Part shown: positions 11,989 to 64,000 of the stretch, in pieces
Position numbering within the stretch: position 1 is the first letter of the stretch
Layout: every line of letters starts with the position of its first letter
Made by a program: the position numbers and the translations under genes
Source of the DNA: Nitrosopumilaceae archaeon
GTDB lineage: Archaea; Thermoproteota; Nitrososphaeria; Nitrososphaerales; Nitrosopumilaceae
Direction: 5' to 3'
Assembly (NCBI GenBank): GCA_965214835.1
Contig: CBDCCK010000002.1
Span: 2,432,001 to 2,496,000, forward strand
DNA: 64,000 nt
The notes under the pieces: generated by a model
What the model was told of the DNA's origin: nothing
The model's database searches: none
Seen by the model: the letters and a program-made list of their open reading frames with translations, nothing else

Positions 11989-12110
11989 TGCATATCTGCA
12001 CGTCACTCTGCTATGTGATCCCACGAGTACATAAGACCTGGTGAGGACCCCGCTAGAATAGGAACGCTTTTTTTCGCACACTTTTTGAGTCAGGAGGTCG
12101 AATCACAAAT

Positions 12111-12400
12111 ATGACCAAGAAAACATGGAGTACGCAGGACAAGATAGGGATAGTCATGGAGCACATCAACACCAACATCGAGACGGCAGAGCTGTGCCGC
12201 CGCCACAACTGGCCCCTAGGACGTTTTACCAGTGGAGGGAGCGCTTTTTGCAGGCCGGACGCGCCTCACTGTCAGGCAGGGGCCACAAGTCAACAGAGGA
12301 GCGGCAGCAAAAGGAGATCGAGTCGCTCAAGAAAATAGTCGGAGAGTACGCCGTGGCCAATGCGGTATTAAAAAAAACCTTGGAGGCAGGCAAAAGGTGA
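12111..12400 (+). pseudogene. IS3 OrfA (HTH), frameshifted near 12210
   Basis: MTKKTWSTQDK..AELCRRHN continues as LAPRTFYQWRERF..LKKT in another frame. Confidence 0.8.
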
Positions 12401-13317
12401 TGGCCGCAACCGAGCTGAAGAGCAAGGGATGGAGCACACGCACATCACTGCAGTACAGCGGGGCAACCAGGACTGCACTGTACTACGAGAAGACGCCCAG
12501 AAAGGTGTTGCCTGACAGGCAGACTGTCATGCATGTGGAACGGATTGGTAAGCAGAGGCCTACATACGGCACGCGCCGCATGGTAGCCCAGATAAGACGC
12601 CAGACCGGCGTGCCGACAAACCGCAAAAGGATACAGCAGATATACCGCAAAATAGGCTGGATCACGCCTAAAAAGACCAAAAACGACATAATCCGGGCCG
12701 GTAAAAGGGGCAGGTTCAAGCCCACAGGACCAAACCAACTGTGGGAGACTGACATCACGTACGTCTGGTGTGGCGTTGACGGGTGGTGCTACTGCTTTAA
12801 CGTAATCGATACGTTCACCCGGAAGTGGATAACATACGTATTTGACACGCAGGCCACCGCACAGGTAGCAGTCGAATCGCTGACAAAGGCAGTCTCCACG
12901 ATTTCGGCAGACGAGGCGCGCGGCCTGCTGGTCAGAAGTGACAACGGCGTCCAGTATACGAGCCGCGAATTCAAGGAAAGCATGAAGGCGCTTGGGGTAA
13001 GGTGTGAGTACATCTGGCACAACACGCCCGAGCAGAACGGACATGTCGAGTCATTTCACAAGACTTGTGGTCAGGGCAGCCCCCGGCAAGAGTGGTGGAT
13101 CGAGCAGAACGGACATGTCGAGTCATTTCACAAGACCCTCAAAAAGGAGTACGTCTGGCCGCACGACTTTGCCAGGTTCCAGGATGCAGAAGCCGTCCTG
13201 GCAGAGGCGTTTGCGGACTACAACCAGGACAGGATCCACTCGGCGCTGGGATACCTGACACCAGACGAGTTTGTCCGAAAAACCCAGAAAAGACAGGAGG
13301 AGGTGCCTCAAAAATGA
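12400..13317 (+). CDS. IS3 OrfB integrase-core transposase with a 24-aa in-frame insertion
   Basis: PNQLWETDITY, SDNGVQY, EQNGHVESFHKT present twice, YNQDRIHSALGYLTP. Confidence 0.88.
   Translation: MAATELKSKGWSTRTSLQYSGATRTALYYEKTPRKVLPDRQTVMHVERIGKQRPTYGTRRMVAQIRRQTGVPTNRKRIQQIYRKIGWITPKKTKNDIIRAGKRGRFKPTGPNQLWETDITYVWCGVDGWCYCFNVIDTFTRKWITYVFDTQATAQVAVESLTKAVSTISADEARGLLVRSDNGVQYTSREFKESMKALGVRCEYIWHNTPEQNGHVESFHKTCGQGSPRQEWWIEQNGHVESFHKTLKKEYVWPHDFARFQDAEAVLAEAFADYNQDRIHSALGYLTPDEFVRKTQKRQEEVPQK
13029..13136. repeat. 36-bp exact direct repeat flanking a 36-bp unrelated insert
   Basis: cgagcagaacggacatgtcgagtcatttcacaagac at 13029-13064 and 13101-13136. Confidence 0.95.
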
Positions 13318-13377
13318 GCGATCAATGTGTGCATAAAATGTTGCCAAAATCGTTCCTACTCATAGGGGTCCACTCCA

Positions 13378-13872
13378 CGGATACGGCATATTTGACAACG
13401 CGACTACAGAAAACGCCCTCAAGGTGCTTGACGGGGCCATGCAGAAGCACGGCAGGCCCGCCTCCATAATGACGGACCACGGAAGCCAGTTTTACGCAAA
13501 CGAAAAACAGGGTGCAAAGAGGGGGCACAGCGAGTTCGAGGAGAGCCTAGAGGCCCTAGGCATACGGCAGGTCCTTGCCGGGGTGCGCCACCCGCAGACA
13601 AACGGCAAGGTCGAGAGGCTGCACGGCGAGATACAGCGCAAGCTGCACGAGTTTGAGGATATCATGATGAGAACAAGCGATCCCATGGATCTGTTCATGA
13701 AATGGTACAACTACGACAGGCCCCACATGTCCCTTGACTGGGATAACCAGGAGACGCCGGCGCAGGCATATGAGCGCAAGATGCCCCCTGCGGGCGAAAC
13801 GGTCATAGATGGGCAGACCGGGGAGGAATATCATGTCAGATAGGGGGGTGAACTACTTTTCGGATCCCACAC
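13378..13872 (+). pseudogene. IS481-family transposase 3' remnant with right end
   Basis: MTDHGSQF, HPQTNGKVERLH, WYNYDRPHMSL; end motif ggggtgaactacttttcggatcccaca. Confidence 0.82.
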
Positions 13873-13922
13873 ACAGAACCACTACGCACAATCTTTTTTT
13901 ATAGGCCAGTGGAACAACAAGC

Positions 13923-14060
13923 ATGTCTGGAACAAAGCAACTAGAATCCCCGCCATTGTCTGACGAGGAGATACGGGACATCAAAGAGTTTTACGCCCAT
14001 CCCGAAGGACACAAAAAAGGAACCCTTCAAGATCTGCTTGATGAACTGCACAGAGTATAG
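13923..14060 (+). CDS. Putative antitoxin (45 aa, acidic)
   Basis: MSGTKQLESPPLSDEEIRDIKEF...LQDLLDELHRV ends 2 nt before the RelE-like toxin. Confidence 0.65.
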   Translation: MSGTKQLESPPLSDEEIRDIKEFYAHPEGHKKGTLQDLLDELHRV

Positions 14061-14062
14061 GA

Positions 14063-14326
14063 ATGTGGGAGTTAATCTGGTCTGAAAGATTCATCAAGCA
14101 GTACAAAAAACTGGACAGTAAAATAAGACAGAGTGTAGATGATGCAATTATCGTCCTTGCAACATCTGATAGTCCGTCTGCCCTTGGCACATACAAATCC
14201 GGAATGAGAACGTTTTCCTATGAGTTGGGCCGCAAACATAGAATCATATACTTTATCCAATATCAAGCTGGAGCAATAGAACTGCTACGAGTGTGTGACC
14301 ACAAGTCAGCATACGGTAAGGACTGA
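14063..14326 (+). CDS. RelE/ParE-family toxin
   Basis: MWELIWSERFIKQYKKLD start, HRIIY, LLRVCDHKSAY end; 87 aa. Confidence 0.82.
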   Translation: MWELIWSERFIKQYKKLDSKIRQSVDDAIIVLATSDSPSALGTYKSGMRTFSYELGRKHRIIYFIQYQAGAIELLRVCDHKSAYGKD

Positions 14327-14545
14327 CTCCATCTCACACCGGAGACGATCCCATCCGGACTCGCATCATACCGTGACCTGCCCCGTATGGCAACTGGACC
14401 TTATGCGCAATCGACCGCGATTAAAAATTCCGCATGGTTTTCCAAACACAGGTGCGTTGATCAGATCAAACCACTGCATGCTAATGTGGATCCATGACTG
14501 CGCGATCCGCGACCCCTGCCTCCATACACGCTATCCAATACCCTA

Positions 14546-16172
14546 GACCTTATGCGTAATCGACCGGATCGAAATATTCCGACGGTGGCCGGCCACACAT
14601 GCAAGGCTGACGGCATCACATGACGTGTATGAGGACGGCACAGTCCGTATATAGTGCAGCTACGAACCGTTCCAGCTGGTAAAAACTACAATGTCGTGCG
14701 GCATCGTGTGGCGCCGCAATGCGCTCCGTATCGTGATATCAGAACCCACGCATGAGCTTCTTGTTCCGCTTGTCCCACAGCAGCCTAAAGTTGGCAAGCC
14801 CGGCCGTCACCTGGAACTCCCTGTCGAACTCCTCGGCGGTCCCGTCGTACGGATCACGCATCCGCTTGTACTGCTTTATCCGTCCTATGGCGTGCTCTAT
14901 CGTCACCCTCTTGCTGCTTATCCTCCTGTTCTGCGCTTTCTGTTTCTTTGTAAGCTTGCCCACTTGGCTTCTTGTCGGGCTGCACGGATCTGGCCCCTGG
15001 ATACACCTCCTCGATTCCCATGTATGCCAGGTCAGAGAACATCTTTACCTTCTCGTCCTCGGGGTGCTTTCTGTTGCTGCGCATCCTGGCAGTCAGGATT
15101 CCCAGATCCGGTGGGTTGTTCTTTATCATGGTGAGGTCGTGCACGCTTCCGGGCGCCGACTTGCATATATCGACAGTCCCTTCTTGCTGGCAATCACCTG
15201 GGTGTTGCGCGTAAAGCTCTTCTTCTTGCCCGAGTATGCCCCCCTTTCTTGGCTCCTTGTTTGTGGGGCGCTGTATGTCGATGTGCGTGCCGTCTACAAT
15301 CACGGTCAGATCCGGGACGATCTCCCTGAGCCCCTCGATCGTGCGGGCGTTTCGTATCTTTCGTGATACGGCGTCCGGCGTGGGCAGTATCTTGAGAAAT
15401 ATCATGTCGCAATACCTGAGGTACCTGCATACCGTGCTCTGGTCTATGCCAAAGAACGCCGCAAGCTGCTCCTGTGTCGGGTTTCCGTACTTGCGCATCA
15501 GCGACATCAGCAGGGCGTGGCGGTAGGACAGCTTGCACCGGTTTCCAGGCAAGTTGTCCTCGTCTTCTGAGAACAGGGGGCCTTCTGTGTGCTTTTTGGC
15601 AAGCTTCGTAAACCGGTCGGATGTATGGTCAAGCTGGCGGCGGTCCATCGACGTGGTGGGCTGCAGGAACCCGCCGCCGATTATGTCCTCGAGCACCTCG
15701 AGCCTGTGCATGAACGCGGCGTTGTTTACGGTACGCCTGTCGTCATCTCAGGTTGCGGGCCACATCTGGCGCTCAGCGTCCAGCCGCCGCTCCAGCTGCC
15801 CTATCCTCCCCTGATCCCGCTCGTGCCTCCTGCCGTCCTGCCTGCTCTTCTTCTCGTACTCTCTGATCTTCTTCCTGTACTGCATCCTCTCCTTCCTGCC
15901 CCGCGCCTTCTCCCTCCTGTACTGCACATTCTCTTTCTCGTACTGCTCGATTCTCTTCCTCAGCAGTCGTATCAACTCGGTCTCGGACTTTGCCATTACT
16001 CTTGTGCGGGAATGGATCCCGGATCTAAATCAACCGGATGAAAATACCTGCAGGTTTGATCAAATATTTTCCACATAATGAGGCGCCGTCGCGCGTGCGC
16101 CGGCCCTGACTCGCCCCATTTGTAGCCCGTGCGCCGGGGGCATCGCCGCTAATTTCGTTTACGCATAAGGTC
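14546..16172 (-). mobile_element. IS5-family (ISL2-like) element with disrupted transposase
   Basis: TIR GACCTTATGCGTAA at both ends flanked by TA; HTH QEQLAAFFGIDQSTVCR, IVDGTH, SAPGSVHD, RVTIEHAIGRIK; in-frame TGA at 15748-15750 and a frameshift near 14960. Confidence 0.85.
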
Positions 16173-16263
16173 TATAGATGGTTACAGTGCGCAGCTGTCC
16201 AAAAAGATACTTTGAAGCAAACCTACAGCTTGTATCGTACCTGCTAAGAAACGAGGATTTTTG

Positions 16264-16372
16264 GTAGCAGCTCGGGCTCGAAGCTCAGGCGTGAGTTCTG
16301 CAACCTCGGAGGGCACTCCCGGGCATATTCGTGCCTGAAATTAGGAATGGCTTCTAGGGCCCGAGCTGTCAC
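16264..16372. mobile_element. MITE family A copy 2
   Basis: Aligns by eye to 6718-6828 (gctcaggcgtgagtt...ttcgtgcctga); imperfect TIRs. Confidence 0.8.
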
Positions 16373-16762
16373 CGTTAGTGTTTTAGATTTGTTTTTACTT
16401 TGTCAAGAATTCTTTCTGCCCACTTTATGGTATTTTCTGCCTGGCTGTCACTCATCAAATCCGGTTGATACTCATGCATTTTTCAGACCAAGCAGTGAGC
16501 CAAACTGTCTTTCCATCTCTTTGAATTCCGGGCCAGAAAGGATGCCTTTTACCAGCAACAATACATCGGCATGTGATCCTGAGGCACGTTTGCTTAGATG
16601 AAAGATTGTAAGTGCATCCAATGCGTTAATTGCACTGTGTATACAATTCATCACAGTGCTGTCATATGCATGTCGTTCTAGTGCAATTTTTGCTAGTTGC
16701 ATCGAGTTTTCTGCTTTTGTGGTGTGATTTGCATATTTTTGAGAATCTACGTCTCTAGTCAC
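16373..16762 (-). pseudogene. HEPN-domain toxin, frameshifted
   Basis: GTGA overlap with the MNT stop; IHSAINALDAL, SGSHAD, LKNA then shifted EYQPDLMS..WAERIL. Confidence 0.75.
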
Positions 16763-17376
16763 CGCATCATACTCTCCAAGCCCTTGCCACAAATCATGAC
16801 ATGGTCTGCAACGATTGAACGGATCAAGTCGCTTTCCTTTTTGGATTGGAGTTCTTTTTGCGAGAGCGTCATTGGTGCAAGCTGGGCATGAAACACTTCT
16901 GCCACTTCTACCAGTGCGTTTGAAATTATTTGGCTTGCGGCGTCAAAATCGTTTGATATGACAAGTATGTCGACGTCGCTATCTGGCTTCTCCTTACCCT
17001 TTGCGACACTTCCAAACAGCGCAGCAGAGACGATGACTTTCTTTCTGTCAAGATTTTTTTTCAGAACTTTGAGCAGCTCCTCCAAAGCATCTTCTTCGGT
17101 TTTGAAGACAGGTTCGATTACCTTGTTGAGGATGTAGTTTTTCCTGTTCAGGGATAGCTGGTGCGACCTGCCAACGGGCTGAACCGTGACGATGCCAAGA
17201 TCCTCAAGATCACGAATCGTGAGGGCCGCCTCGTTGACAGAGACATTTGCCGTTCTGGCAAGGCCTCTTTTGGTAAAGATCTTGGCCGGATACCGGACCA
17301 TTGTTCTAAGTACGCGTATGGCTGCCTTGCTGCCCAAGACTTGCTCAAGACAGTCGTGGAATTGCATCACCATCAT
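16759..17376 (-). CDS. wHTH plus minimal nucleotidyltransferase (MNT) antitoxin
   Basis: N-terminal HTH-like segment; LFGSVAKG..PDSDVDILV. Confidence 0.88.
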   Translation of the reverse strand: MMVMQFHDCLEQVLGSKAAIRVLRTMVRYPAKIFTKRGLARTANVSVNEAALTIRDLEDLGIVTVQPVGRSHQLSLNRKNYILNKVIEPVFKTEEDALEELLKVLKKNLDRKKVIVSAALFGSVAKGKEKPDSDVDILVISNDFDAASQIISNALVEVAEVFHAQLAPMTLSQKELQSKKESDLIRSIVADHVMICGKGLESMMR

Positions 17377-17414
17377 GTCCCATATTTAAGACATATGTCC
17401 CATATTTAAGACAT
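17375..17414. repeat. 20-bp tandem duplication over the MNT promoter/start
   Basis: atgtcccatatttaagacat twice; contains TTAAATA on the minus strand. Confidence 0.85.
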
Positions 17415-21981: not shown

Positions 21982-22088
21982 GTGGCAGGGGCGGGGATTC
22001 CGGATGTTTTTGGAAGTCTTTCTTGCATCTCGGGCCTTGGGCGCCTGCGTCATGTGGCAGGGGCGGGGATTCCGGATGTTTTTGGAAG
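21982..22088. repeat. 35-bp exact direct repeat flanking a 37-bp unrelated insert
   Basis: gtggcaggggcggggattccggatgtttttggaag at 21982-22016 and 22054-22088. Confidence 0.95.
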
Positions 22089-34941: not shown

Positions 34942-35051
34942 ACTTGAGACGTGTCTTGAACGGCCACAGACATGACATGGTTTGCACCGAGTGCCTAAAA
35001 TGCGCAAGATGCAAACTTGAGACGTGTCTTGAACGGCCACAGACATGACAT
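34942..35051. repeat. 37-bp exact direct repeat flanking a 36-bp unrelated insert
   Basis: acttgagacgtgtcttgaacggccacagacatgacat at 34942-34978 and 35015-35051. Confidence 0.95.
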
Positions 35052-47822: not shown

Positions 47823-48050
47823 CCATACGTTCTGGTTCTACAAGGGCTTTTTCGGCCGGGTGCAGGCGGCGCACTGCATGGCAGTATCCCGCGGCATCCT
47901 ACCTGACTGTAGTGCCATACAGCTGGGGCCCTTCAGTGCTTTCGGACGTGTTTTGTCATATCTGGTGGGGCAATAATTAAAATAATTGCCCCAGCTTGCC
48001 CTTGGCCAGACGTGCATACGTATTTTATCCGTGAAAAAGGCAGTACGGAC

Positions 48051-49712
48051 ATGGCACAGCAGGTTCCAGACATCATACCGGTACGGATGCTTACGCAGTA
48101 TGCGTATTGCAAGCGTCTCTCATACATGGAATGGGTCCAGGGCGAGTTTGAATACAATACGGAGGTGATAGAGGGCAAACATAATCACCGCAACGTGGAC
48201 AAGTCATCTGAGAGAAGAAAGGCAGGAAAGGAGGAAGATGAAAAGATCCATACGCGCTCCGTTACGCTCTCTGATGACAAAATTGGCCTCGTAGCAAAGA
48301 TGGATCTGCTGGAGATAAGCGGCAGTCATGCCACCCCGGTAGAGTACAAACGAGGCAGCACGCCAGATACTGCCGAGAGGACGCATCTGGATCACAGGAT
48401 ACAGGTGTGCGCGCAGGGGCTCCTGCTGCGTGCCAACGGATACGAATGCACAAAGGGCATAGTCTACTATGTGTCCTCAAAGCAGCGCGTAGAGGTGGAC
48501 TTTGATGACAGGATGGTGGCAGAGACGCTGCAGATGATACACGACATGAAGGAGACGATGGCCCTGGGCTCCATGCCTCCCCCGCTGGTAGACAGCCCCA
48601 AGTGCCCGAGATGCTCGCTTGTTGGCATATGCATGCCCGATGAGACCAACATGCTCTCCGATGTCGGGTCAGGTACGAGCCAAGAGCGGATCCGCAGAAT
48701 GTATCCAATGAGGGACGACGCGGTTCCGGTATACGTGCAAGAGCAGGGCGCGCGCGTTACAAAGTCCAATGACCGCATACATGTCATGATAAACGGGCAG
48801 GTGGCAAGGAAGATCCGCCTCATTGACATCTCTGAGATCACGCTGTTTGGAAACGTGCAGATTACAACCCAGGCCGTACGGGAGCTGTGCAACAGAAACA
48901 TACCCATATGCTACATGACCTATGGCGGGTGGTTTACAGGCATGACCACCGGCATGGTACACAAGAACATAGAGCTTCGCATGGCCCAGCATAAAAAGCA
49001 CTCGGCCAACAACGCGAGGATGGACATAGCCAGGAGCATAGTATACGGGAAGATCAAAAACTGCACTACGCTGCTGCGCAGAAACCACAAGGGCATGCCG
49101 GAGAAGGTGCTTGGCAGGCTTGACGAGTTTGCAGATCAAGCAAGGCACGCCCGCAGGTATGACGCCCTGCTGGGCATCGAGGGCATGGCGGCAAGGGTGT
49201 ACTTTTCAGAGTTCAATGGCATGATAAAGGACGAATCCGTCGGCTTTGAGTTCACGGAAAGGAACAGGAGGCCTCCCCGCGATCCCATCAATGCGCTCCT
49301 GTCATTTCTGTACTCTGTCCTGACGCGGCAGGCCACAGTTACTGCAGGCAGGGTCGGGCTGGATCCGTATCTTGGGTTTTTGCACATGCCAAAGTACGGG
49401 CGTCCCGCCCTGGCACTTGATCTGATAGAGGAGTTCAGGCCGCTTGTTGCAGACTCTGTGTGCATCACGGTCATAAACGGCGGTGAGGTTACAAACAAGG
49501 ACATGATAAAGACAAAATTCGGCGTCAACATGACGTCTGCGGGAAGGCGCGCAGTCATAGCCGCATACGAGAGGCGCATGGACTCTACCGTGACACACCC
49601 GGCCCTTGGCTATTCGGCAAGCTACCGGCGCATCATGGAGACTCAGGCAAGGCTGCTCTCAAGGCACCTGCTAGACGAGATACCCTCATATCCTGCATTT
49701 AGGACAAGATGA
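48051..49712 (+). CDS. cas1: CRISPR-associated Cas4-Cas1 fusion
   Basis: Cas4: YCKRL, MDL..PVEYKRG, KCPRCSL..C. Cas1: LGIEG.AA..YF, RNRRPPRDPINALLSFLY, GFLH, LALDLIEEFRP. Confidence 0.95.
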   Translation: MAQQVPDIIPVRMLTQYAYCKRLSYMEWVQGEFEYNTEVIEGKHNHRNVDKSSERRKAGKEEDEKIHTRSVTLSDDKIGLVAKMDLLEISGSHATPVEYKRGSTPDTAERTHLDHRIQVCAQGLLLRANGYECTKGIVYYVSSKQRVEVDFDDRMVAETLQMIHDMKETMALGSMPPPLVDSPKCPRCSLVGICMPDETNMLSDVGSGTSQERIRRMYPMRDDAVPVYVQEQGARVTKSNDRIHVMINGQVARKIRLIDISEITLFGNVQITTQAVRELCNRNIPICYMTYGGWFTGMTTGMVHKNIELRMAQHKKHSANNARMDIARSIVYGKIKNCTTLLRRNHKGMPEKVLGRLDEFADQARHARRYDALLGIEGMAARVYFSEFNGMIKDESVGFEFTERNRRPPRDPINALLSFLYSVLTRQATVTAGRVGLDPYLGFLHMPKYGRPALALDLIEEFRPLVADSVCITVINGGEVTNKDMIKTKFGVNMTSAGRRAVIAAYERRMDSTVTHPALGYSASYRRIMETQARLLSRHLLDEIPSYPAFRTR

Positions 49713-49715: not shown

Positions 49716-50006
49716 ATGCGCAACAGGTATCTGGTGTGTTATGATGTCAGCGATCCCGTGCGGCTTGTCAAGACGTACAAAAAGATGAACGGATACGGGG
49801 ATCCGGCGCAGTACTCTGTCTTTATGTGCGACCTTAGCGCAGGGGAGCTGGTAATGATGAAGGAAGAGCTAGGAGATCTGCTAAACCTTGACGAGGACAG
49901 GGTTCTCATAGTGGACATTGGGCCTGCAGAAAAGCAGGACAGGCGCATAATGACGATGGGGGCGGCGCCATCTAGAACCAAAAGGGAGGCATCCATCGTA
50001 GTATGA
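49716..50006 (+). CDS. cas2: CRISPR-associated Cas2
   Basis: YLVCYDVSD, QYSVF. Confidence 0.95.
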   Translation: MRNRYLVCYDVSDPVRLVKTYKKMNGYGDPAQYSVFMCDLSAGELVMMKEELGDLLNLDEDRVLIVDIGPAEKQDRRIMTMGAAPSRTKREASIVV

Positions 50007-50177
50007 CGTACGAGAGGCCCGGAGCGCTTGCGTTACGAGGGAGGTGTTTGAAAACACGTTATATATGAGGATGGGGGCGCATGCCATCCAAGTGCACTCG
50101 ATACGAAAAACGCAAGTGCTGTACAAAAAAGATGCTGATCACACACCCGTAATGACCGATACAGTCGGGATTACGGG
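50007..50177 (+). promoter_or_regulatory. CRISPR leader
   Basis: Non-coding stretch between cas2 and repeat 1; repeat 3' end ATTGAAGC implies plus-strand transcription. Confidence 0.75.
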
Positions 50178-53100
50178 ATTTCCGCAACGATAAAGTTGCG
50201 GCCCCATTGAAGCTAATGCTTGTTACTGTGGCGATATTCATTTCCGCAACGATAAAGTTGCGGCCCCATTGAAGCTGCGTCCAGTCTATCACGGATTGGA
50301 AGGCCGCAATCATTTCCGCAACGATAAAGTTGCGGCCCCATTGAAGCGTCCTAGCCGGAAGTACCCAGTGGGCCGCCCAGATATTGCATTTCCGCAACGA
50401 TAAAGTTGCGGCCCCATTGAAGCAACGGTAATGCCGTCGCGGCTGTAAAGTTTCCAGCCTGACATTTCCGCAACGATAAAGTTGCGGCCCCATTGAAGCT
50501 GATCGTCTCGATGTCTTACAATGGTTCTTTTTGTCTATTTCCGCAACGATAAAGTTGCGGCCCCATTGAAGCATTATTCTATCACGGGTTTCCGGCGACA
50601 TGATGCTGAATTTCCGCAACGATAAAGTTGCGGCCCCATTGAAGCCGTAGCCAGGCTGAAAACGTCGAAGATCGGGTTCGTCAATTTCCGCAACGATAAA
50701 GTTGCGGCCCCATTGAAGCGACGGCCTGGCAGTTAACGTCCACATAGCGACTAAATTTCCGCAACGATAAAGTTGCGGCCCCATTGAAGCGCAGGCCCCT
50801 GACAAGAGCTTGGCAGGCCCCTGACAAATTTCCGCAACGATAAAGTTGCGGCCCCATTGAAGCACTGGTCAAGTCGACTTCCCAGTTAAGGGATATTGTA
50901 TTTCCGCAACGATAAAGTTGCGGCCCCATTGAAGCTCTTCAGGGGAGCTGCCTAACAGTTGTCTGTGATATGCCGATTTCCGCAACGATAAAGTTGCGGC
51001 CCCATTGAAGCATTTCCTCGCATTCCTCCCGGAAACCTCACCCCTTGCATTTCCGCAACGATAAAGTTGCGGCCCCATTGAAGCGGACTAGGAGCCGCAG
51101 TAGCACTTAACGCGTTTCTTATTTCCGCAACGATAAAGTTGCGGCCCCATTGAAGCGCCCTAATGTTGCGATTGCGCCAATATCGGGAATAAATTTCCGC
51201 AACGATAAAGTTGCGGCCCCATTGAAGCCGTGCATATGTAGGGCTTATCCCCAATCGCGCAAACTCGATTTCCGCAACGATAAAGTTGCGGCCCCATTGA
51301 AGCTTCCCTTACCTCGCCGACATCTACTCGACCTTCTGCCATTTCCGCAACGATAAAGTTGCGGCCCCATTGAAGCGTCGAAATTTCCCACGCTCTGCGA
51401 TAATCACTATCCGATTTCCGCAACGATAAAGTTGCGGCCCCATTGAAGCGGATTTCGTCTGCGCTATTCTGACGCACCTGGGATAGATTTCCGCAACGAT
51501 AAAGTTGCGGCCCCATTGAAGCAATCCGCAGCTTGGCCGAATCGACCCTGATTGCCGTATTTCCGCAACGATAAAGTTGCGGCCCCATTGAAGCAAGAAT
51601 CCCAGAACCATAACGTCCTCTATGCCCTCGCATTTCCGCAACGATAAAGTTGCGGCCCCATTGAAGCGTTATTTTCTGATGCCGAGTAAGTTGTCTTGCA
51701 CTTTCATTTCCGCAACGATAAAGTTGCGGCCCCATTGAAGCGAGCTGGAATCCCTCAAGATGATCTGGGAGATCCTAATTTCCGCAACGATAAAGTTGCG
51801 GCCCCATTGAAGCCGTTCTGCAGCTGGAGCGGGGATATCCACCTTTTGTATTTCCGCAACGATAAAGTTGCGGCCCCATTGAAGCGAGCACGTGGCCGTC
51901 AATCGGCGAGTACTTTGACTTGACATTTCCGCAACGATAAAGTTGCGGCCCCATTGAAGCCGCGACGACTGCATCTGCACCAGGGCAGAATACGAGATTT
52001 CCGCAACGATAAAGTTGCGGCCCCATTGAAGCTGGCTAATCAAAAATATCTCACGGTGTCTTTCCAGCAATTTCCGCAACGATAAAGTTGCGGCCCCATT
52101 GAAGCCTGATCAGCCAATGCACACTAGGCATTATTGCTCCTCAATTTCCGCAACGATAAAGTTGCGGCCCCATTGAAGCGAGCCAAGGAGCTAACGGTAC
52201 AGGCCCGACTTCTTTGTATTTCCGCAACGATAAAGTTGCGGCCCCATTGAAGCATCATACTGAATATGATAACTGCCAATTTCAAAATAATTTCCGCAAC
52301 GATAAAGTTGCGGCCCCATTGAAGCGCGGCACGTGGCACGCACAGGCCCAAGAGATACTGGGTATTTCCGCAACGATAAAGTTGCGGCCCCATTGAAGCG
52401 GTTCAGTAAGGCGATCTTTGCATATGAGGCAGTATGTATTTCCGCAACGATAAAGTTGCGGCCCCATTGAAGCAATGTTTGCGCCTCTTGATAGTTCTTT
52501 TCTTGACTGATTTCCGCAACGATAAAGTTGCGGCCCCATTGAAGCACATTAAGTCCGAACCAAATCAAGTTCATACCATTCGCATCATTTCCGCAACGAT
52601 AAAGTTGCGGCCCCATTGAAGCCCGTTAATACCCCGTGCGTAAAACGGTATTACTATGGTAATTTCCGCAACGATAAAGTTGCGGCCCCATTGAAGCGCC
52701 CGTGAATGGCTTCAAGCCAAACCAACGGCAATAGATTTCCGCAACGATAAAGTTGCGGCCCCATTGAAGCTTTTATTTAGAATAAAGACATGGCTATTAG
52801 ATTCGGATTTCCGCAACGATAAAGTTGCGGCCCCATTGAAGCAAAAAAGGACAATAAAACGAAGGAAAAAACGCCATGCCTATTTCCGCAACGATAAAGT
52901 TGCGGCCCCATTGAAGCCTCATGGCATGACAGGCATTCGTTCCACAGATTGTAGATTTCCGCAACGATAAAGTTGCGGCCCCATTGAAGCTTGATAGTTA
53001 CCTTGCGCGTTTAGCGCCTCTAATGAGATTTCCGCAACGATAAAGTTGCGGCCCCATTGAAGCTTTCGTGCCTATACTCACGGTACTCACGGTATTTCAA

Positions 53101-56100
53101 TTTCCGCAACGATAAAGTTGCGGCCCCATTGAAGCGCACCTATCGTCATCATCAAGATACGCGATGACCTCCATTTCCGCAACGATAAAGTTGCGGCCCC
53201 ATTGAAGCGATAATTCTGATCTGATAGATGCAATACGTGAGTATATTTCCGCAACGATAAAGTTGCGGCCCCATTGAAGCACCCTTTTTGTCCTTGTATG
53301 CCACAACAACAAGCCCGATTTCCGCAACGATAAAGTTGCGGCCCCATTGAAGCAAACAAGTATGCTTGGCCTGCCGCCGCGCGCCTCTTATTTCCGCAAC
53401 GATAAAGTTGCGGCCCCATTGAAGCGTTACTGTAGATTTACCGGCAATACAGCGATATCCATATTTCCGCAACGATAAAGTTGCGGCCCCATTGAAGCGA
53501 TTAATCTTATGAAATGCTGTGAATGTGATTCACAGAAATTTCCGCAACGATAAAGTTGCGGCCCCATTGAAGCGGGGGGCTATACATGACTGAGAGAGTC
53601 AAGACAAAAGGATTTCCGCAACGATAAAGTTGCGGCCCCATTGAAGCAATATGATTGAAGGATAACGTGCCACCTGCTCCAATATTTCCGCAACGATAAA
53701 GTTGCGGCCCCATTGAAGCTCGTCAAACGCCTGGAAGCCCACTACGCTGTATACACCTATTTCCGCAACGATAAAGTTGCGGCCCCATTGAAGCGCTGGG
53801 GAGATAGGCAGGATAGAGAAACATCTGAAATTTCCGCAACGATAAAGTTGCGGCCCCATTGAAGCGACGGCTTGTATGATCCCAAGGATATAATCGAGCT
53901 GCATTTCCGCAACGATAAAGTTGCGGCCCCATTGAAGCGAACCATCGAACATTAACACCCCCCCTTTTTTTTAAATTTCCGCAACGATAAAGTTGCGGCC
54001 CCATTGAAGCTGCCAACGCGGATATTAACAACGAGGCAATAGTACGATTTCCGCAACGATAAAGTTGCGGCCCCATTGAAGCGTGTATTTCTTCTTTTGT
54101 CGGCATTGTTATGTATTGTATTTCCGCAACGATAAAGTTGCGGCCCCATTGAAGCGTATTTCCTTGACGTATGGTGCATGGATTTTGTTCACATTTCCGC
54201 AACGATAAAGTTGCGGCCCCATTGAAGCCCTTTTCTGCCCTAACGTCATGGTTTGTGATAACCGTCATTTCCGCAACGATAAAGTTGCGGCCCCATTGAA
54301 GCAATGCAAATCGGCCTTTACCGACATTCAGCACTATACTTATTTCCGCAACGATAAAGTTGCGGCCCCATTGAAGCGATTGAAGGTGAATGTGTTTGGT
54401 CGTACTTGTGGTACATTTCCGCAACGATAAAGTTGCGGCCCCATTGAAGCCGCAAAAGCCCAGTCTTTTTGCCAATCTTTTTGGTATTTCCGCAACGATA
54501 AAGTTGCGGCCCCATTGAAGCGTAGGTTATCTCTGCTCCCCGGATGCGGAAGTCTGGCAGATTTCCGCAACGATAAAGTTGCGGCCCCATTGAAGCGCGC
54601 AAAACCTCAATTATGTGCGCCTGCCATTTCTCATTTCCGCAACGATAAAGTTGCGGCCCCATTGAAGCCATTTTTGCAGCTTCTCCCGCTTCGTGCATTT
54701 CGGCATTTCCGCAACGATAAAGTTGCGGCCCCATTGAAGCAGCTTATTCCCCATGAGTAGTATGTGGAGTAGTCGCTATTTCCGCAACGATAAAGTTGCG
54801 GCCCCATTGAAGCTAACTGGTATCGGCAAGCGTGTTAGGCTCTCAACCGTATTTCCGCAACGATAAAGTTGCGGCCCCATTGAAGCGCTGCTAGATGTGT
54901 TTGTGGATGATGCGAGGTTATAGATTTCCGCAACGATAAAGTTGCGGCCCCATTGAAGCTTGTAGGGTCTTCATGGCCTGTTGTCGAAATTCTGAATTTC
55001 CGCAACGATAAAGTTGCGGCCCCATTGAAGCATCACCGTGCGACCCGACGATGAGATTGAAGCCTCCGATTTCCGCAACGATAAAGTTGCGGCCCCATTG
55101 AAGCAAATATGCCGATTACGCCAAAGTCCGCCAGCTGCCGCATTTCCGCAACGATAAAGTTGCGGCCCCATTGAAGCGAAAAGACCTTCGGCGGTCAAGC
55201 CAACACAATCCGAAATTTCCGCAACGATAAAGTTGCGGCCCCATTGAAGCCGGCGGTTGAAAGTCATGGTGAGCCAGCCCGAGGCATTTCCGCAACGATA
55301 AAGTTGCGGCCCCATTGAAGCGTTGAAGACTGCATCCTATCATTCAGTATTCTGACAATTTCCGCAACGATAAAGTTGCGGCCCCATTGAAGCGTTACTA
55401 AAGCTGTCATCCCCAAAGTGGTCTATACTCATTTCCGCAACGATAAAGTTGCGGCCCCATTGAAGCATACCCGTTATGCAGGAGTTCCATGCGTACTTCA
55501 TATTTCCGCAACGATAAAGTTGCGGCCCCATTGAAGCGTGTTTTTCCGTGCTGATACCCGTAATAGATGAGAGATTTCCGCAACGATAAAGTTGCGGCCC
55601 CATTGAAGCCAATGTTGCCGCTCGGCGCTGGAACTGAACTATCATATTTCCGCAACGATAAAGTTGCGGCCCCATTGAAGCAGAGTTTTGTTGTCTCTGG
55701 GCTTGTGGTCTCAGAGTTATTTCCGCAACGATAAAGTTGCGGCCCCATTGAAGCACAAGCAACTAAAATCACGAGCACATGCGGTATATTCATTTCCGCA
55801 ACGATAAAGTTGCGGCCCCATTGAAGCAATAACCCCACCTTTCTAGAATAGCCATGCAAACCGATTTCCGCAACGATAAAGTTGCGGCCCCATTGAAGCA
55901 ACGGCGTTGTTACATCCACTCGAATCATCCACGACTTCATACACGTTTATATTTCCGCAACGATAAAGTTGCGGCCCCATTGAAGCAACGGCGTTGTTAC
56001 TCTGACCAATTTTATCCACTCGAATTTCCGCAACGATAAAGTTGCGGCCCCATTGAAGCCCTTCTTTCGGGCCGATATCTGTGGAATGCTATTGCATTTC

Positions 56101-59100
56101 CGCAACGATAAAGTTGCGGCCCCATTGAAGCTTTAATCTTCATTCCTCTTTCTCCTGCTTTTTTGCCTATTTCCGCAACGATAAAGTTGCGGCCCCATTG
56201 AAGCATGAAAAAAATAATTTCTTAACTGAATAGTATAGGATCATTTCCGCAACGATAAAGTTGCGGCCCCATTGAAGCATTAGGCGTATATGGGGATGGT
56301 GATCTCCATATTTCAATTTCCGCAACGATAAAGTTGCGGCCCCATTGAAGCACGAAATTACGTGACCAAGTTAGGAGCTTGATGCGTCATTTCCGCAACG
56401 ATAAAGTTGCGGCCCCATTGAAGCAGTTTGCAATTGAGCAGACTGGCGGATCAGCTGCAGATTTCCGCAACGATAAAGTTGCGGCCCCATTGAAGCCGAG
56501 TTCCGGACTTACGGCAGATCTACTCATCGACTCGATTTCCGCAACGATAAAGTTGCGGCCCCATTGAAGCCCCCCAGCCGACAACCCGTACGCCTCGCTG
56601 TATCTGATTTCCGCAACGATAAAGTTGCGGCCCCATTGAAGCGATCCCAATCGAGGACGAGCACGGCCAGGACGGAGGCTAATTTCCGCAACGATAAAGT
56701 TGCGGCCCCATTGAAGCATTTTTGCTTGTGCGACTGTTTTCAAAGTTATCACTGATTTCCGCAACGATAAAGTTGCGGCCCCATTGAAGCTTATTGATGA
56801 AGGCGACAAGATGAAGTCAGAAGATCAATTTCCGCAACGATAAAGTTGCGGCCCCATTGAAGCTGCGTGCTCGGTGTCTGGTATGGACGCGCCTCAAGAT
56901 TTCCGCAACGATAAAGTTGCGGCCCCATTGAAGCTTGACAAAGATACTGTCGGTATCCCCGTACAGGACAGATTTCCGCAACGATAAAGTTGCGGCCCCA
57001 TTGAAGCATATCCCCCCTACACGGTTAGCAGTCTGATAACGTACATTTCCGCAACGATAAAGTTGCGGCCCCATTGAAGCTGGGAGGTCGTACGGACCGA
57101 ATGATGACGTCCGCACATTTCCGCAACGATAAAGTTGCGGCCCCATTGAAGCACAATCTGGTTCCAGAGCCCTCTATATCGAACAGACGCATTTCCGCAA
57201 CGATAAAGTTGCGGCCCCATTGAAGCCACCTGATCAGGTTCTAGACCCATGGACCTGACTTCAGATTTCCGCAACGATAAAGTTGCGGCCCCATTGAAGC
57301 TATTTTCCCGGCTCCTGATGTGGTCAATGAGCCTTTGATTTCCGCAACGATAAAGTTGCGGCCCCATTGAAGCTCAAATCCCAATTCATCACCTAATTTA
57401 CTCAACTTACATTTCCGCAACGATAAAGTTGCGGCCCCATTGAAGCATGCATCTTCCCCACGCTCCAAATCGTACAGCTCGGATTTCCGCAACGATAAAG
57501 TTGCGGCCCCATTGAAGCGCGTCAGGATATGCCTTCTGCAACTTCCTTTGCTTGATTTCCGCAACGATAAAGTTGCGGCCCCATTGAAGCTTGAATTCTG
57601 TCTGCATAATGCCTGAACAGGTTCAGATTTCCGCAACGATAAAGTTGCGGCCCCATTGAAGCCCTGGTTTTCATGTAAAAAAATAGGTATTGGGTATTAA
57701 ATTTCCGCAACGATAAAGTTGCGGCCCCATTGAAGCTTGTTGTGGGTGATTTTCCACTGATGCATTTGTACCCATTTCCGCAACGATAAAGTTGCGGCCC
57801 CATTGAAGCGGGTTGGATGCTGGCCGTGATTGGCCGCAGGTTTGGTATTTCCGCAACGATAAAGTTGCGGCCCCATTGAAGCGGGTTTGATGCTGGCCGT
57901 GATTGGCCGCAGGTTTGGTATTTCCGCAACGATAAAGTTGCGGCCCCATTGAAGCGATGCAATACGTTGCCAGTCGTTAATTTCACACCGATATATTTCC
58001 GCAACGATAAAGTTGCGGCCCCATTGAAGCTGGCCTATAACGGTGAAACGCTATTGCCATTTGGCCATTTCCGCAACGATAAAGTTGCGGCCCCATTGAA
58101 GCGGGTATCAGTTATGTCGTATTTGTGCGTCCAGTTGGCCTGATTTCCGCAACGATAAAGTTGCGGCCCCATTGAAGCCAAGCAAAAGGTTGCCAATACT
58201 GTTGAGAAAAAACAAATTTCCGCAACGATAAAGTTGCGGCCCCATTGAAGCATAGATTCGATTTAGAGGGCAAACTGTTTTTCCGAAATTTCCGCAACGA
58301 TAAAGTTGCGGCCCCATTGAAGCAGGTCTGCCGCCGCGTACCGTGGCGGCAATGCAGTAATTTCCGCAACGATAAAGTTGCGGCCCCATTGAAGCTTCGC
58401 AAGGAAGGACTCCTAATCTTCCATTTTTTGGATTTCCGCAACGATAAAGTTGCGGCCCCATTGAAGCGTGGTGGTACCGGTGGCATTGGCATGGTTTGAG
58501 TAGATTTCCGCAACGATAAAGTTGCGGCCCCATTGAAGCACTTCTCCAACCAGCGCTCCGGCGACGACTCGATCCGGATTTCCGCAACGATAAAGTTGCG
58601 GCCCCATTGAAGCGCGGCAGATTTTGGGGCTGCTTATGATTATTCTTGGGATTTCCGCAACGATAAAGTTGCGGCCCCATTGAAGCATTTTTTGTGAATC
58701 GGCGAACCAGGTGCCAGAGCCGTATTTCCGCAACGATAAAGTTGCGGCCCCATTGAAGCGTCTATCATATCCACTTTAATTGTGGATACGTACATCTATT
58801 TCCGCAACGATAAAGTTGCGGCCCCATTGAAGCACTGAGCGATACCGATCCTATGCATACAACACGACAATTTCCGCAACGATAAAGTTGCGGCCCCATT
58901 GAAGCATGGGTATCTATCTGGAATTTCCGGGCGAACACACTCGATTTCCGCAACGATAAAGTTGCGGCCCCATTGAAGCAATAATGCTTCCTCTTCTTCC
59001 TGCGTCGGCGGTGCCATTTCCGCAACGATAAAGTTGCGGCCCCATTGAAGCAGAATGTGTATTCAGCCTATGGATACTATTGTGCGAATTTCCGCAACGA

Positions 59101-60954
59101 TAAAGTTGCGGCCCCATTGAAGCGCTGAGGATGTCAGGGAGGTACTCGAGCACAGGCTAATTTCCGCAACGATAAAGTTGCGGCCCCATTGAAGCTGATA
59201 TAGATCCTCGATTTGGTTGTCGGGCATTTTCTTGATTTCCGCAACGATAAAGTTGCGGCCCCATTGAAGCTAAAGTGAGGTTGAGGTTGTATTCTGCGAC
59301 AAAGGGATTTCCGCAACGATAAAGTTGCGGCCCCATTGAAGCTCGGACACCAAGCTTGCGGTCCGGTTCCAGACCTTCTCGATTTCCGCAACGATAAAGT
59401 TGCGGCCCCATTGAAGCGTGAAATACTACGGCGACACAATGTCCAAGATCAGCAATTTCCGCAACGATAAAGTTGCGGCCCCATTGAAGCATATCCTTAT
59501 CTAGTGTATCTGCTTGATAGTTGATCTATTTCCGCAACGATAAAGTTGCGGCCCCATTGAAGCGAGGCGGGGGCTGTGACAAAAGGCGTATTGGCAGCTA
59601 TTTCCGCAACGATAAAGTTGCGGCCCCATTGAAGCGTCCATTGTGCAGGTGATGAGTAGCCCGCGAATGGATCATTTCCGCAACGATAAAGTTGCGGCCC
59701 CATTGAAGCGCAGGGCAGGGCTAAAACTATCAAAGTTTCCATAACGATTTCCGCAACGATAAAGTTGCGGCCCCATTGAAGCTCTGCTCACTGGTTTTGA
59801 TTGAATCAATTCAATATGAATTTCCGCAACGATAAAGTTGCGGCCCCATTGAAGCCGTCACGACTTTGCGGAAAGTCTGGCCATGTATTCCCCCATTTCC
59901 GCAACGATAAAGTTGCGGCCCCATTGAAGCGTGGTTCCGCGATAGCCGTCGGACTCGCGCCCGGTCCATTTCCGCAACGATAAAGTTGCGGCCCCATTGA
60001 AGCGCTGACCAATTACTTTTTTCCCAGCCACGACTAAAATATTTCCGCAACGATAAAGTTGCGGCCCCATTGAAGCTGATCGTTCCTGTATAAAGGGAGT
60101 TTGGCCACGTTCATTTCCGCAACGATAAAGTTGCGGCCCCATTGAAGCAATTACGCTGGCTTATCCGGTTTAGGTTTTTGACATAATTTCCGCAACGATA
60201 AAGTTGCGGCCCCATTGAAGCTTCGGTATCGATTTGGGTTTCTAGCGATTGATCAGATTTCCGCAACGATAAAGTTGCGGCCCCATTGAAGCCAAAGAAG
60301 TCAATCCCTTCGTTTTGCATCTTGATGATCTATTTCCGCAACGATAAAGTTGCGGCCCCATTGAAGCATTCAGCCTGAGTGTTACTCAGGGATCAGAAAA
60401 ATGTATTTCCGCAACGATAAAGTTGCGGCCCCATTGAAGCTGTGTATCAGAAGATGAAGAAGAAATAATAAGATATATTTCCGCAACGATAAAGTTGCGG
60501 CCCCATTGAAGCATGTATGAGCTGTGGATCGACAAACAGAAAAAAGATCGATTTCCGCAACGATAAAGTTGCGGCCCCATTGAAGCGATTTGGCTGTGGT
60601 TGATATCCTGAAATTTATAGACATTTCCGCAACGATAAAGTTGCGGCCCCATTGAAGCATCTTGGCGCCTGCCTCGCAGAGCAGCTCGATGATGGATTTC
60701 CGCAACGATAAAGTTGCGGCCCCATTGAAGCCCAGCAGATCTGCTGCCAGATTGCGGGCGGCAGCTGGATTTCCGCAACGATAAAGTTGCGGCCCCATTG
60801 AAGCGCGCAAAATGTCTTTATTTAGTCCGGCTCCGGACTTTTGATTTCCGCAACGATAAAGTTGCGGCCCCATTGAAGCTCTGTTTACTGCTGCGTCAAG
60901 TGTCGCGCGTGAAGCTGGATTTCCGCAACGATAAAGTTGCGGCCCCATTGAAGC
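50178..60954 (+). CRISPR. Type I-G (I-U) CRISPR array, about 148 repeats
   Basis: 36-bp repeat ATTTCCGCAACGATAAAGTTGCGGCCCCATTGAAGC with CCGCAAC/GTTGCGG hairpin; spacers mostly 34-41 bp; counted by eye. Confidence 0.98.
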
Positions 60955-62178: not shown

Positions 62179-64000
62179 GTGGATTTTGTAAAAGCATTCA
62201 AATCACTCACTGAACATGAGCCTTATCCATGGCAACAAAGAATGTTTAAAAGGTTCATAGACGGAAACGTGCCAGACGTATTAGACATTCCGACAGGATT
62301 AGGAAAAACATCTGTCATTGCAATATGGTTGTTGGCATTAGCACATACAAAAGAATTGAAGAAAGATACAGTTTCTACCCGTATGGTATACATAGTTGAC
62401 AGACGTGTAATTGTAGATCAAGCATCTGCAGAAGTGGAAAACATACGCAAAAAAATCAATGAAGAACCTATAAAATCCATTTTAGGTAACATCGGGGGAG
62501 ATTTGAATGTAAGTAGATTGCGAGGAGGTGGAGGTCTAGATGACAGCAGGCAATGGCTACGAGATCCACACAAACCTGCAATAATAGTAGGGACTACAGA
62601 TATGATAGGGAGCCGTTTGCTCTTTTCAGGTTATGGGGCTGGTAAGAAAATTAGATCGTTTTACGCGGGTTTGTTGGGTCAAGATTCCTTAATTGTGCTA
62701 GACGAAACACATCTTTCACCTGCTATGGAAAGAGTGCTAAAAGATATCAAACATGTCTCACATGAAATAGAAGAAAAAAATCTATTATATCCACCAAAAA
62801 TCCTTCTGATGTCAGCTACACAACACACTAGCAACTCAGACAGGTTAGGATTAGATGAAGATGATCTAAAACTCGAAAATGTCAAAAAACGCTACAAAGC
62901 ACCTAAAAAGCTAGAATTGCAGCAAAGTGATAAAAAAGAAGTACAAAATGAAATATTTAATCACGCGATTAAAATGAGCGGGAGGGTTATAATATATGTT
63001 CAAAAACCATCCGATGCAAAAGCCATATCCAAAAAACTCCGTAAAGAGGAAAAAGAGAGCATAGTTCTAACAGGTACCATTAGAGGATTTGAGCGGGACC
63101 GCTTGGCTGACGAAGAAGCATACAATGCGTTTCTAGACAAAGAATGGAATCATGATAGAACTGTATACATGGTGTCAACATCAGCAGGAGAAGTAGGGGC
63201 GGATTTTGATGCAGATCACATGGTATGTGACATGACCACGATGGACTCATTCATACAAAGGTTAGGGAGAGTAAACCGGAGTGGGGGAAGAAAATCAAGT
63301 ATAGTGGTAGTATACAGCAAAGAGGATTTTAATAAAAAGGACAAATATAGTGAAAGTAAAAAAGCCACAGCACATATCTTGGAAAAACTAGTGAAGGAAA
63401 ACAACAATGATGTGAGCCCGCATCGGTTGGACAAAATACCCTCAGAGGAAAAAAACCAAGCGTTTTCCCCCACACCAGAGACTCAGCCACTAACCAAGGA
63501 GATATTGGATATGTGGTCCATGACGTCGATCTACAAAGAATATTCATCCAGACCCAAGGTAAGTCACTGGCTGCATGGCAAACCAGAACGATCCGAGCCA
63601 GACACATACATCGTATGGAGAGATGATGTCGAATACCTAACTGATGCTGACGATTCAGAATTAGAACATCTCTTTGAACGCCATAGAATACTCCCACAAG
63701 AGATAGTCCGAGAGAAAACAAACGATGTTTATAATTTTCTAAAACAGCTAGGCAGTAACGACAATGCAATCATTATAACAAATGGTAGGTATGAAAAATT
63801 CAACATATCTAAAGATGTACAAGAAAGAAAAGATTTGAAATTCGCAACCATAGTTCTACCATGCAGAGTGGGGGGCCTGAATTCTGATGGATTTTTGGAT
63901 GTAAAATCCAAGCGGTCAGTACTCGACGTGGCTGACATTCCTCACATGAAAAATCGCATAAGGGTTCTCGTAAAAGAAGTGGAGGAAGAAGACGGCAGCA
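62179..64000 (+). CDS. cas3: Type I-G Cas3 helicase-nuclease (partial)
   Basis: GTG start; PYPWQ, DIPTGLGKTSVIAIW, YIVDRRVIVDQ, GTTDMIGSRLLFSGYG, LDETHL, STSAGEVGAD, QRLGRVNR. Helicase-first layout. Confidence 0.9.
   Translation, partial: MDFVKAFKSLTEHEPYPWQQRMFKRFIDGNVPDVLDIPTGLGKTSVIAIWLLALAHTKELKKDTVSTRMVYIVDRRVIVDQASAEVENIRKKINEEPIKSILGNIGGDLNVSRLRGGGGLDDSRQWLRDPHKPAIIVGTTDMIGSRLLFSGYGAGKKIRSFYAGLLGQDSLIVLDETHLSPAMERVLKDIKHVSHEIEEKNLLYPPKILLMSATQHTSNSDRLGLDEDDLKLENVKKRYKAPKKLELQQSDKKEVQNEIFNHAIKMSGRVIIYVQKPSDAKAISKKLRKEEKESIVLTGTIRGFERDRLADEEAYNAFLDKEWNHDRTVYMVSTSAGEVGADFDADHMVCDMTTMDSFIQRLGRVNRSGGRKSSIVVVYSKEDFNKKDKYSESKKATAHILEKLVKENNNDVSPHRLDKIPSEEKNQAFSPTPETQPLTKEILDMWSMTSIYKEYSSRPKVSHWLHGKPERSEPDTYIVWRDDVEYLTDADDSELEHLFERHRILPQEIVREKTNDVYNFLKQLGSNDNAIIITNGRYEKFNISKDVQERKDLKFATIVLPCRVGGLNSDGFLDVKSKRSVLDVADIPHMKNRIRVLVKEVEEEDGS

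Follow-up and report, generated by a model that had tools for sequence, protein, structure and literature searches.

We identified a 72 bp insertion in the transposase gene of an IS3-family insertion sequence (IS) of a Nitrosopumilaceae archaeon, which very probably arose by off-target spacer integration, at a site outside any CRISPR locus, through the native type I-G Cas4g/Cas1g fusion protein and Cas2. The IS lies in a stretch of 64 000 nt (hereafter the window; contig CBDCCK010000002.1, positions 2,432,001 to 2,496,000 of the forward strand, assembly GCA_965214835.1) that also carries a type I-G CRISPR-Cas locus (Table 1). Within the transposase gene the 36-mer CGAGCAGAACGGACATGTCGAGTCATTTCACAAGAC is present twice, in copies that are 100% identical and 72 nt apart from start to start, and a 36 nt insert lies between them. 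The boundaries of this structure, which we call unit 1, are unambiguous, as the bases immediately flanking each copy differ, and simple arithmetic gives an expectation of ~1e-15 for an exact 36-mer repeat at a fixed spacing occurring by chance in 3.2 Mb. The 361 amino acid (aa) open reading frame (ORF) reads HNTPEQNGHVESFHKT-CGQGSPRQEWWI-EQNGHVESFHKTLKKEYVW across the unit, the additional 72 nt being in frame and free of stop codons. The initial annotation of this DNA had described exact 36 bp repeats around a 36 bp insert and had called the unit 'ectopic' and CRISPR-like. Both descriptions were borne out, since the duplication is as long as the CRISPR repeat (36 nt) and the insert falls within the spacer sizes of the main array.

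The empty form of the site is preserved elsewhere. A BLAST search with the IS (12039-13377 as the query) against its own genome returned many copies, and in every full copy the alignment ended after the first 36-mer and resumed at the second, with an overlap of 36 nt on the subject. All nine of the paralogs that we aligned carry one 36-mer (with 0-4 substitutions) opposite a 72-column gap, contain no insert and read PEQNGHVESFHKTLKKE, and a copy from a genome of the same genus (G002:C98) is likewise insert-free and shows the same 36 nt overlap. Because the nine paralogs and the congener copy hold a single 36-mer and no insert, unit 1 is a 72 bp insertion. Deleting the 72 bp restores the normal sequence of the IS family, as all nine paralogs read the single 36-mer, and the ancestral state can be read directly, in agreement with what had been proposed from the sequence of the window.

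The insert occurs only once in the window (0 of 100 shuffles matched at ≤3 mismatches), and we found no inverted repeats. When the host genome was searched with the insert, one other match was obtained, with 35 of 36 positions identical, on the minus strand at G000:C2:902215-902180. This protospacer is located 1.54 Mb away in a gene encoding a 477 aa protein with DNA_pol_E_B, Metallophos and OB domains, the small subunit of DNA polymerase D (PolD). The 5' flank of the protospacer reads ...AGTTTG, placing a flush TTG beside it, which fits the TTN protospacer-adjacent motif (PAM) of type I-G systems. In the available excerpt of a study of the Geobacter Cas4/1 protein of type I-U (now I-G), spacers are 36 bp long and the TTN PAM is upstream (PMC6547450). 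An exact search of viral contigs with the unit 1 spacer gave no hits.

Unit 1 belongs to a class of ectopic units that extends across the genome, which we scanned at all spacings (3.22 Mb in two contigs). An exact scan for isolated direct repeats (length ≥22 nt, spacing 25-300) yielded 123 pairs, with repeat lengths that peaked at 36 (17 pairs) and 37 (12 pairs) and fell to zero at 40-41; a spacing of 72 was shared by 23 pairs. In a mismatch-tolerant scan, 19, 9, 5 and 10 isolated pairs were found at spacings of 72, 73, 74 and 75, respectively, and 51 in total at 69-77, while the other spacings from 40 to 130 had 0-4 pairs each, except for two families of repeated elements at 79 and 84. This distribution mirrors the periods of the resident CRISPR array, where 72, 73, 74 and 75 nt occur 45, 54, 18 and 16 times (of the 147 array spacers, 45 are 36 nt and 54 are 37 nt in length). 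The 58 loci of the mismatch-tolerant scan were reduced to 38 independent units by removing seven members of a repeated family (family X), one duplicate and 12 loci outside our strict thresholds (repeat of 33-39 nt, spacing of 69-76, ≤2 mismatches). Paralogous empty sites were available for 17 of the 38 units, in repeated DNA. The start-to-start spacing was divisible by three in 21 of the 38 units, compared with 62 of 147 array periods, a difference that was not significant (p=0.2). None of the units had grown to three or more pseudo-repeats; a single chain was detected, and it proved to be a tandem repeat in protein-coding sequence.

Two further units are encoded in the window. The spacer of unit 2 matches C2:257419-257454, with a flush TTC, and for the spacer of unit 3 there was no match in the assembly. 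As a population check, contigs of four public runs were placed on positions 12500-32400 of the window. In runs X3 and X6, which belong to one study, a contig joins 21981 to 22054 and so skips exactly 72 nt, with 233 nt on its shorter side; contigs of run X1 break inside unit 2, as expected with the loop present. An empty allele of unit 2 in X3 and X6 is probable rather than proven, given that an assembler could in principle skip a 72 nt loop.

The ectopic spacers differ sharply from those of the array in their relation to the host chromosome. Matches elsewhere in the assembly were found for 14 of the 38 ectopic spacers versus one of the 147 array spacers (Fisher p=3e-10, computed for 14). One of these 14 matches is a duplicate copy of the spacer's own unit, leaving 13 of 38 as self-derived. 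A TTN motif lies flush on one side of the match for seven of the 14 self-matching spacers, compared with 11.8% of random 36-mers (p=5e-4). The data fit a simple reading in which self spacers in the array have been purged by autoimmunity and the ectopic ones survive, unexpressed as CRISPR RNAs (crRNAs). The contrast between array and ectopic self spacers (1/147 versus 13/38) argues that the ectopic units are silent. The only array spacer to match the assembly, spacer 41, does so at C1:6366-6401, in a glycosyltransferase gene, with 36 of 37 positions identical and preceded by ...GCGTT. C1 is a 13 kb contig that carries an IS66 transposase and may be chromosomal, strain-variable or mobile.

The genomic context of the unit 1 protospacer may bear on how such spacers are sampled. 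The PolD small-subunit gene neighbours orc1/cdc6, beside which is an intergenic stretch of 29-36% GC with four 18-19-mers resembling origin recognition boxes (ORBs; GGAGTGGAAATAAAGGGGT), two of them inverted. We predict from these features that the stretch is probably the replication origin (oriC), ~2 kb from the protospacer. The sources of four ectopic spacers cluster on the oriC side within 6.5 kb, at 900.2, 902.2, 904.4 and 906.4 kb. It should be noted that the 904.4 kb protospacer belongs to a locus outside the strict set of 38 units; a locus dropped from that set, C2:2394945, has a clear oriC-side protospacer with TTG. Hotspots of self-spacer acquisition in P. furiosus include OriC and transposase genes, according to the part of that study available to us (PMC5737086).

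The presumed integrase is encoded in the same window. No Cas1 locus other than the cas4g/cas1g fusion was found in the genome, and cas4g/cas1g, cas2, cas3g, cas8g2, cas7g and csb2 are all open frames. A 36 bp duplication around a 36 nt insert is the expected trace of Cas1-Cas2 integration at a non-CRISPR site, and unit 1 combines a duplication of repeat length and an insert in the spacer range with an empty site, a PAM-bearing protospacer and an intact adaptation module in the genome. It is from these observations that we infer the agency of Cas4/1-Cas2. The model we propose is that a prespacer with a TTG PAM would have been excised from the PolD small-subunit gene on the chromosome, near the predicted oriC. 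The integration complex would have bypassed the leader-repeat junction and carried out its two strand transfers in orfB of the IS3 element, with a stagger of 36 bp, and gap repair would then have duplicated the 36 bp target on either side of the 36 nt spacer, as happens with the repeat in normal adaptation. The outcome would be a repeat-spacer-repeat scar in which the 'repeats' are transposase coding sequence, with 24 residues added in frame and EQNGHVESFHKT duplicated.

To characterize the target sites, we analysed the junctions of the 15 units with an exact 36 nt repeat, reading both ends inward on their own strands (30 ends). Biased positions were found from -4 to +2 and at +5 and +7, with C at -4, A at -3, never T at -2, G or C at +1, a pyrimidine (Y) at +2, C at +5 and A at +7. 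Three positions passed Bonferroni correction, and the third-smallest p value was 0.0016, compared with a 5th percentile of 0.034 in random-site controls. The C at +5 and Y at +2 are common to both ends of the true CRISPR repeat (ATTTC... and GCTTC...). In this small sample, the bias suggests a weak sequence preference of the integrase at the junctions. There was also a hint of hairpin propensity in the targets, with a minimum free energy of -7.63 versus -5.84 (p=0.0015), a longest-stem comparison at p=0.07 and GC content uncontrolled.

Several observations weigh against our interpretation. The link between Cas4/1-Cas2 and the insertion sites is inferential, not experimental, and the junction consensus is weak only. 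The 36 bp targets resemble the CRISPR repeat no more than random sites do (mean best identity of 14.15/36 versus 13.9), and the likeness of targets to the native leader-repeat that is reported for E. coli was not seen here; the off-target sites of Nivala 2018 in E. coli are said to resemble the native locus. The unit 1 spacer differs from its source at one of 36 positions, and seven of the 14 self-matching spacers have no flush TTN. No empty allele was seen at the locus of unit 1 itself in contigs from the public runs; a loose end of an X6 contig at 13101 represents an 'empty' junction, possibly derived from a paralog, the IS being multi-copy with a depth of 450-760. Finally, in the congener G004, which has a 65%-identical Cas4/1 and a 36 nt repeat, one of six isolated exact repeats was CRISPR-like (37/71) in a 400 kb sample of a genome of ~4.3 Mb. 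Because this sample, too small for a rate, held only one candidate, ectopic units do not appear to be general to the system.

We considered whether another mobile element or integrase inserts fragments of ~36 nt with a 36 bp target-site duplication, and judge this very improbable. Such an agent would account for targets that are unlike the CRISPR repeat or leader, where the specificity of Cas1-Cas2 is not evident. However, no two inserts are alike and terminal repeats are absent from them, plain chromosomal fragments make up 13 of the 38, insert lengths and start-to-start spacings follow the distribution of the array, and the I-G PAM TTN is enriched beside the sources. Unit 1 itself is unlike a transposon, a miniature inverted-repeat transposable element (MITE) or a casposon, as it is not a repeated element and has neither terminal inverted repeats nor a short target-site duplication. 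Target duplications of casposons are ~14-15 bp, and we know of no transposase or casposase that produces a 36 bp duplication, a length well beyond that of known target-site duplications.

It is hardly credible that unit 1 is a working mini-CRISPR ('neo-CRISPR') whose crRNA acts on the PolD gene, for example in regulation. The flush TTG PAM and the 35/36 match would suit such a role, as would the sense orientation of the spacer within a transcribed gene and the intact interference genes. However, the flanking 'repeats' are at chance identity (14/36) to the CRISPR repeat and lack its 7 bp stem, no unit has grown to three pseudo-repeats, and a functional crRNA directed at an essential replication gene would be expected to kill the cell; that array spacers avoid self and ectopic ones do not is a further argument for silence. 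Unit 1 is best read as a scar without CRISPR function. Unlike a bona fide array, it has one spacer and no chains, and its pseudo-repeats are coding sequence unlike the CRISPR repeat. The lack of relationship between its pseudo-repeats and the repeat recognised by the Cas proteins would explain the tolerance of a PAM-bearing, self-targeting spacer. Next to no credence can be given to the alternatives, named in part by the initial annotation, that the 72 bp are native to the IS lineage or arose by local replication slippage or tandem duplication, because although the flanks form a perfect direct repeat, like slippage products, the insert is missing from the nine paralogs and the congener copy, its 36 nt were not copied from adjacent DNA but match a polymerase gene at a distance of 1.54 Mb, and 37 further units share the same 36+36 geometry in unrelated sequences.

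The organization of the host element is typical of the IS3 family: it combines orfA with an orfB in the -1 frame, a slippery run of A8, an rve D,D(35)E core and inverted ends of the TG...CA type. Its ends at 12039 and 13377 were set where the copies diverge, and loose ends of contigs in X3 and X6 are located at 13378. The Pfam matches in orfB are HTH_21 (residues 107-146), rve (165-259) and rve_3 (291-344). In a phmmer search against PDB, WETDITY, VRSDNG and GHVE(273) aligned with the stretches of retroviral integrases that hold the catalytic D, D and E residues, and we counted 35 residues on the translation from the second Asp to the first copy of the Glu. This alignment and count confirmed the earlier claim that the insertion is in frame at the Glu of the DDE triad and duplicates the catalytic Glu motif. 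The first Glu copy keeps the canonical spacing and its helix continues as CGQGSPRQ, not LKKEYVW; the second keeps the native helix and is displaced by 24 residues. The translation makes it reasonable to suppose that the 24 aa insertion disables the transposase.

This last point is partly moot given a second lesion. A 1 nt deletion at ~12209 is present only in the IS copy with unit 1, which reads CACAA-CTGG, compared with CACAACCT in the five others (six aligned), and shifts the orfA frame after ...CRRHN. In copies c2655, c1191 and c1937, orfA is intact and encodes 96-102 aa. Because of the deletion, the IS copy with unit 1 is defective irrespective of the 72 bp insertion; either lesion may have come first. 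The element shares the rve domains, orfA/orfB arrangement, A8 slippery run and TG...CA ends of IS3 DD(35)E transposases, and differs from other IS3 elements in the 24 aa insertion at the catalytic Glu helix and the 1 nt deletion in orfA. The right end of the IS3 element is adjoined by a fragment of another multi-copy rve-type IS (13378-13843; 139 aa ORF, rve_3), making this region one of nested or adjacent IS debris.

Units were ~2-fold denser in repeated DNA, with 17 of 38 located there versus 171 of 600 random sites (p=0.043). Examined units in open single-copy genes lie mostly outside the domains matched by Pfam (Table 1), and one lies within a DNA methylase match. Both the enrichment in repeated DNA and the position of the units relative to domains are explained by tolerance under purifying selection no less well than by a preference in targeting. 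The genome is unusually rich in repeats and ISs, its same-family relatives being listed at 0.8-1.8 Mb, and 28.5% of random 636 nt sites (the 171 of 600) have another spanning copy at ≥80% identity.

Off-target ('non-canonical') integration by Cas1-Cas2, and the genesis of neo-CRISPRs from it, was reportedly described by Nivala, Shipman & Church in 2018 (Nat Microbiol 3:310). The mechanism is thus already known, and it is the natural scale of the events here that is unusual. In the excerpts of later papers that cite the work, it concerned E. coli over-expressing Cas1-Cas2, with 'circumstantial evidence' in two other species (PMC7054753, 10.1101/148544, PMC9456107). Our units share with those of Nivala 2018 the spacer-sized insert, the duplication of a non-CRISPR target over the length of a repeat and the active adaptation module in the genome. 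In contrast, the events described here are natural rather than the product of over-expression, involve an archaeal type I-G Cas4/Cas1 fusion in place of E. coli type I-E, and number 38 in a single genome, all independent and fixed, with many located within genes in frame; to a large extent their spacers are of self origin and have a PAM, clear likeness of the targets to the leader-repeat is lacking, and there is no array expansion.

The units also invite comparison with other systems, as far as the consulted portions of the following papers describe them. Canonical I-G adaptation (Almendros 2019, PMC6547450; PMC10504553) has the same 36 nt spacers, TTN PAM, repeat-length duplication and cas4/1-cas2-leader-array layout, whereas the site of unit 1 is formed by IS3 transposase codons instead of the leader-repeat junction, and a crRNA with proper handles is impossible. 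The sampling of self spacers in P. furiosus (Shiimori 2017, PMC5737086) likewise draws PAM-bearing chromosomal spacers from oriC-proximal DNA and transposase genes, but there the self spacers are transient in arrays, seen by deep sequencing and presumed lethal, and here they are preserved outside the array. The 'ectopic spacer acquisition' of Streptococcus (PMC7999890, PMC5338259) resembles unit 1 in that the spacer enters at a position other than the leader-proximal repeat; those events, however, occur inside the array at genuine repeats, and the term differs in meaning. Our literature search did not turn up any account of dozens of off-target integrations occurring naturally in one genome; its coverage was incomplete, and additional published cases may exist.

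The interest of these findings lies in their setting: in a native archaeal I-G system, 38 events are fixed, self spacers from the oriC side bear a PAM, genes are hit in frame and one allele is probably polymorphic. For these natural events the empty sites can be recovered and spacer sources have been identified, together with a PAM, and at least one of them is probably polymorphic in public runs. Because they lie outside the array, ectopic spacers escape autoimmune purging and so record what the adaptation machinery samples, whereas self sampling is normally visible only through deep sequencing of cultures. The units indicate that host genes can be mutated by CRISPR adaptation, in some cases through in-frame insertions of 24 aa, and natural target sites could reveal the sequence preference of the Cas4/1-Cas2 integrase. 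We speculate, while regarding it as unlikely, that off-target I-G integration acts as an evolutionary force that leaves a heritable, unselected record of the self DNA beside oriC and the IS DNA that Cas4/1-Cas2 samples, adds in-frame peptides of ~24 residues to host proteins, hits ISs preferentially and disables transposases. Were this true, the CRISPR system would exert a second, crRNA-independent restraint of mobile DNA.

Table 1. Features of the window and related loci (positions refer to the window unless a contig is named)
Feature	Position	Strand	Remarks
Left 36 bp target copy, unit 1	13029..13064	+	Codons for EQNGHVESFHKT; Glu with D-35-E spacing kept
Inserted 36 nt spacer, unit 1	13065..13100	+	Encodes CGQGSPRQEWWI in the transposase frame; PAM-proximal end is the left
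Right 36 bp target copy, unit 1	13101..13136	+	Followed by the LKKEYVW helix in its native form
IS3-family insertion sequence, 1339 bp including the 72 bp insert	12039..13377	+	Terminal inverted repeats TGGTGAGGACCCC and GGGGTCCACTCCA
orfA, A8 slippery run at ~12370-12377	12111..12400	+	1 nt deletion near 12209
orfB, rve/DDE transposase, listed as 361 aa, in-frame 24 aa insertion	12232..13317	+	Pfam, phmmer
Unit 2: 35 nt repeat, 37 nt spacer, spacing 72	21982..22088	+	In frame in a 153 aa ORF without Pfam match
Unit 3: 37 nt repeat, 36 nt spacer, spacing 73	34942..35051	+	Direct-repeat scan
cas4g/cas1g fusion, 566 aa, presumed integrase	48012..49712	+	NF049935, 754.8 bits (cut-off 560)
cas2	49716..50006	+	TIGR01573; PF09827
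CRISPR leader, 171 nt	50007..50177	+	Lies between the stop of cas2 and the first repeat
Type I-G array, 148 identical 36 nt repeats, 147 spacers	50178..60954	+	Repeat scan
IS630-like transposase gene (DDE_3 + HTH)	60980-61999	-	Between the last CRISPR repeat and cas3g
cas3g, continues beyond the window	62179..64000	+	Then cas8g2, cas7g and csb2 downstream
Probable oriC	C2:899827-900133 (L002:4827-5133)		ORB-like copies of GGAGTGGAAATAAAGGGGT; immediately upstream of orc1/cdc6 and the gene for the PolD small subunit
Units outside Pfam domains	GT2 transferase residue 278; HtrA-like protease 42; sulfotransferase 60; S4 protein 180		Pfam
Family X loci	Window 25800-25912; C2:1308256, 1624026, 2343414, 2692095, 1736693, 2257292, 1995606		Repeat scan

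Family X was excluded from the independent integrations because it is a repeated element, with four identical copies that have 42 nt repeats at a spacing of 79, and relatives at 39/75 and 27/74. Across the family, the direct repeats are 27-42 nt in length at spacings of 74-79, with a conserved middle resembling GCATGTGGAGTTTGACATACTGCC.

A megablast search of the whole type I-G array against a phage collection gave no match. A small second array is present on the minus strand at C2:135821-136367, with eight variant repeats, which differ from the main repeat at 2-5 positions with changes on both arms of the stem, and with one spacer duplicated. The congener contigs G004:C1 and G003:C4 carry the same cas4/1, at 65 and 58% identity, respectively, with 36 nt repeats, and the gene on G003:C4 holds an in-frame TAA. 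The repeat stems of the congeners differ from those of this genome by paired changes (GCAAC/GTTGC against GTAAC/GTTAC). Elsewhere in the window, at 43820-45028, acidic repeats lengthen the product of a ribosomal protein L24 gene, for which L24 accounts for the N-terminal 113 aa, to 402 aa; the gene includes a perfect 72 nt tandem duplication (44210-44344) and four units of 141 nt (44345-44905).

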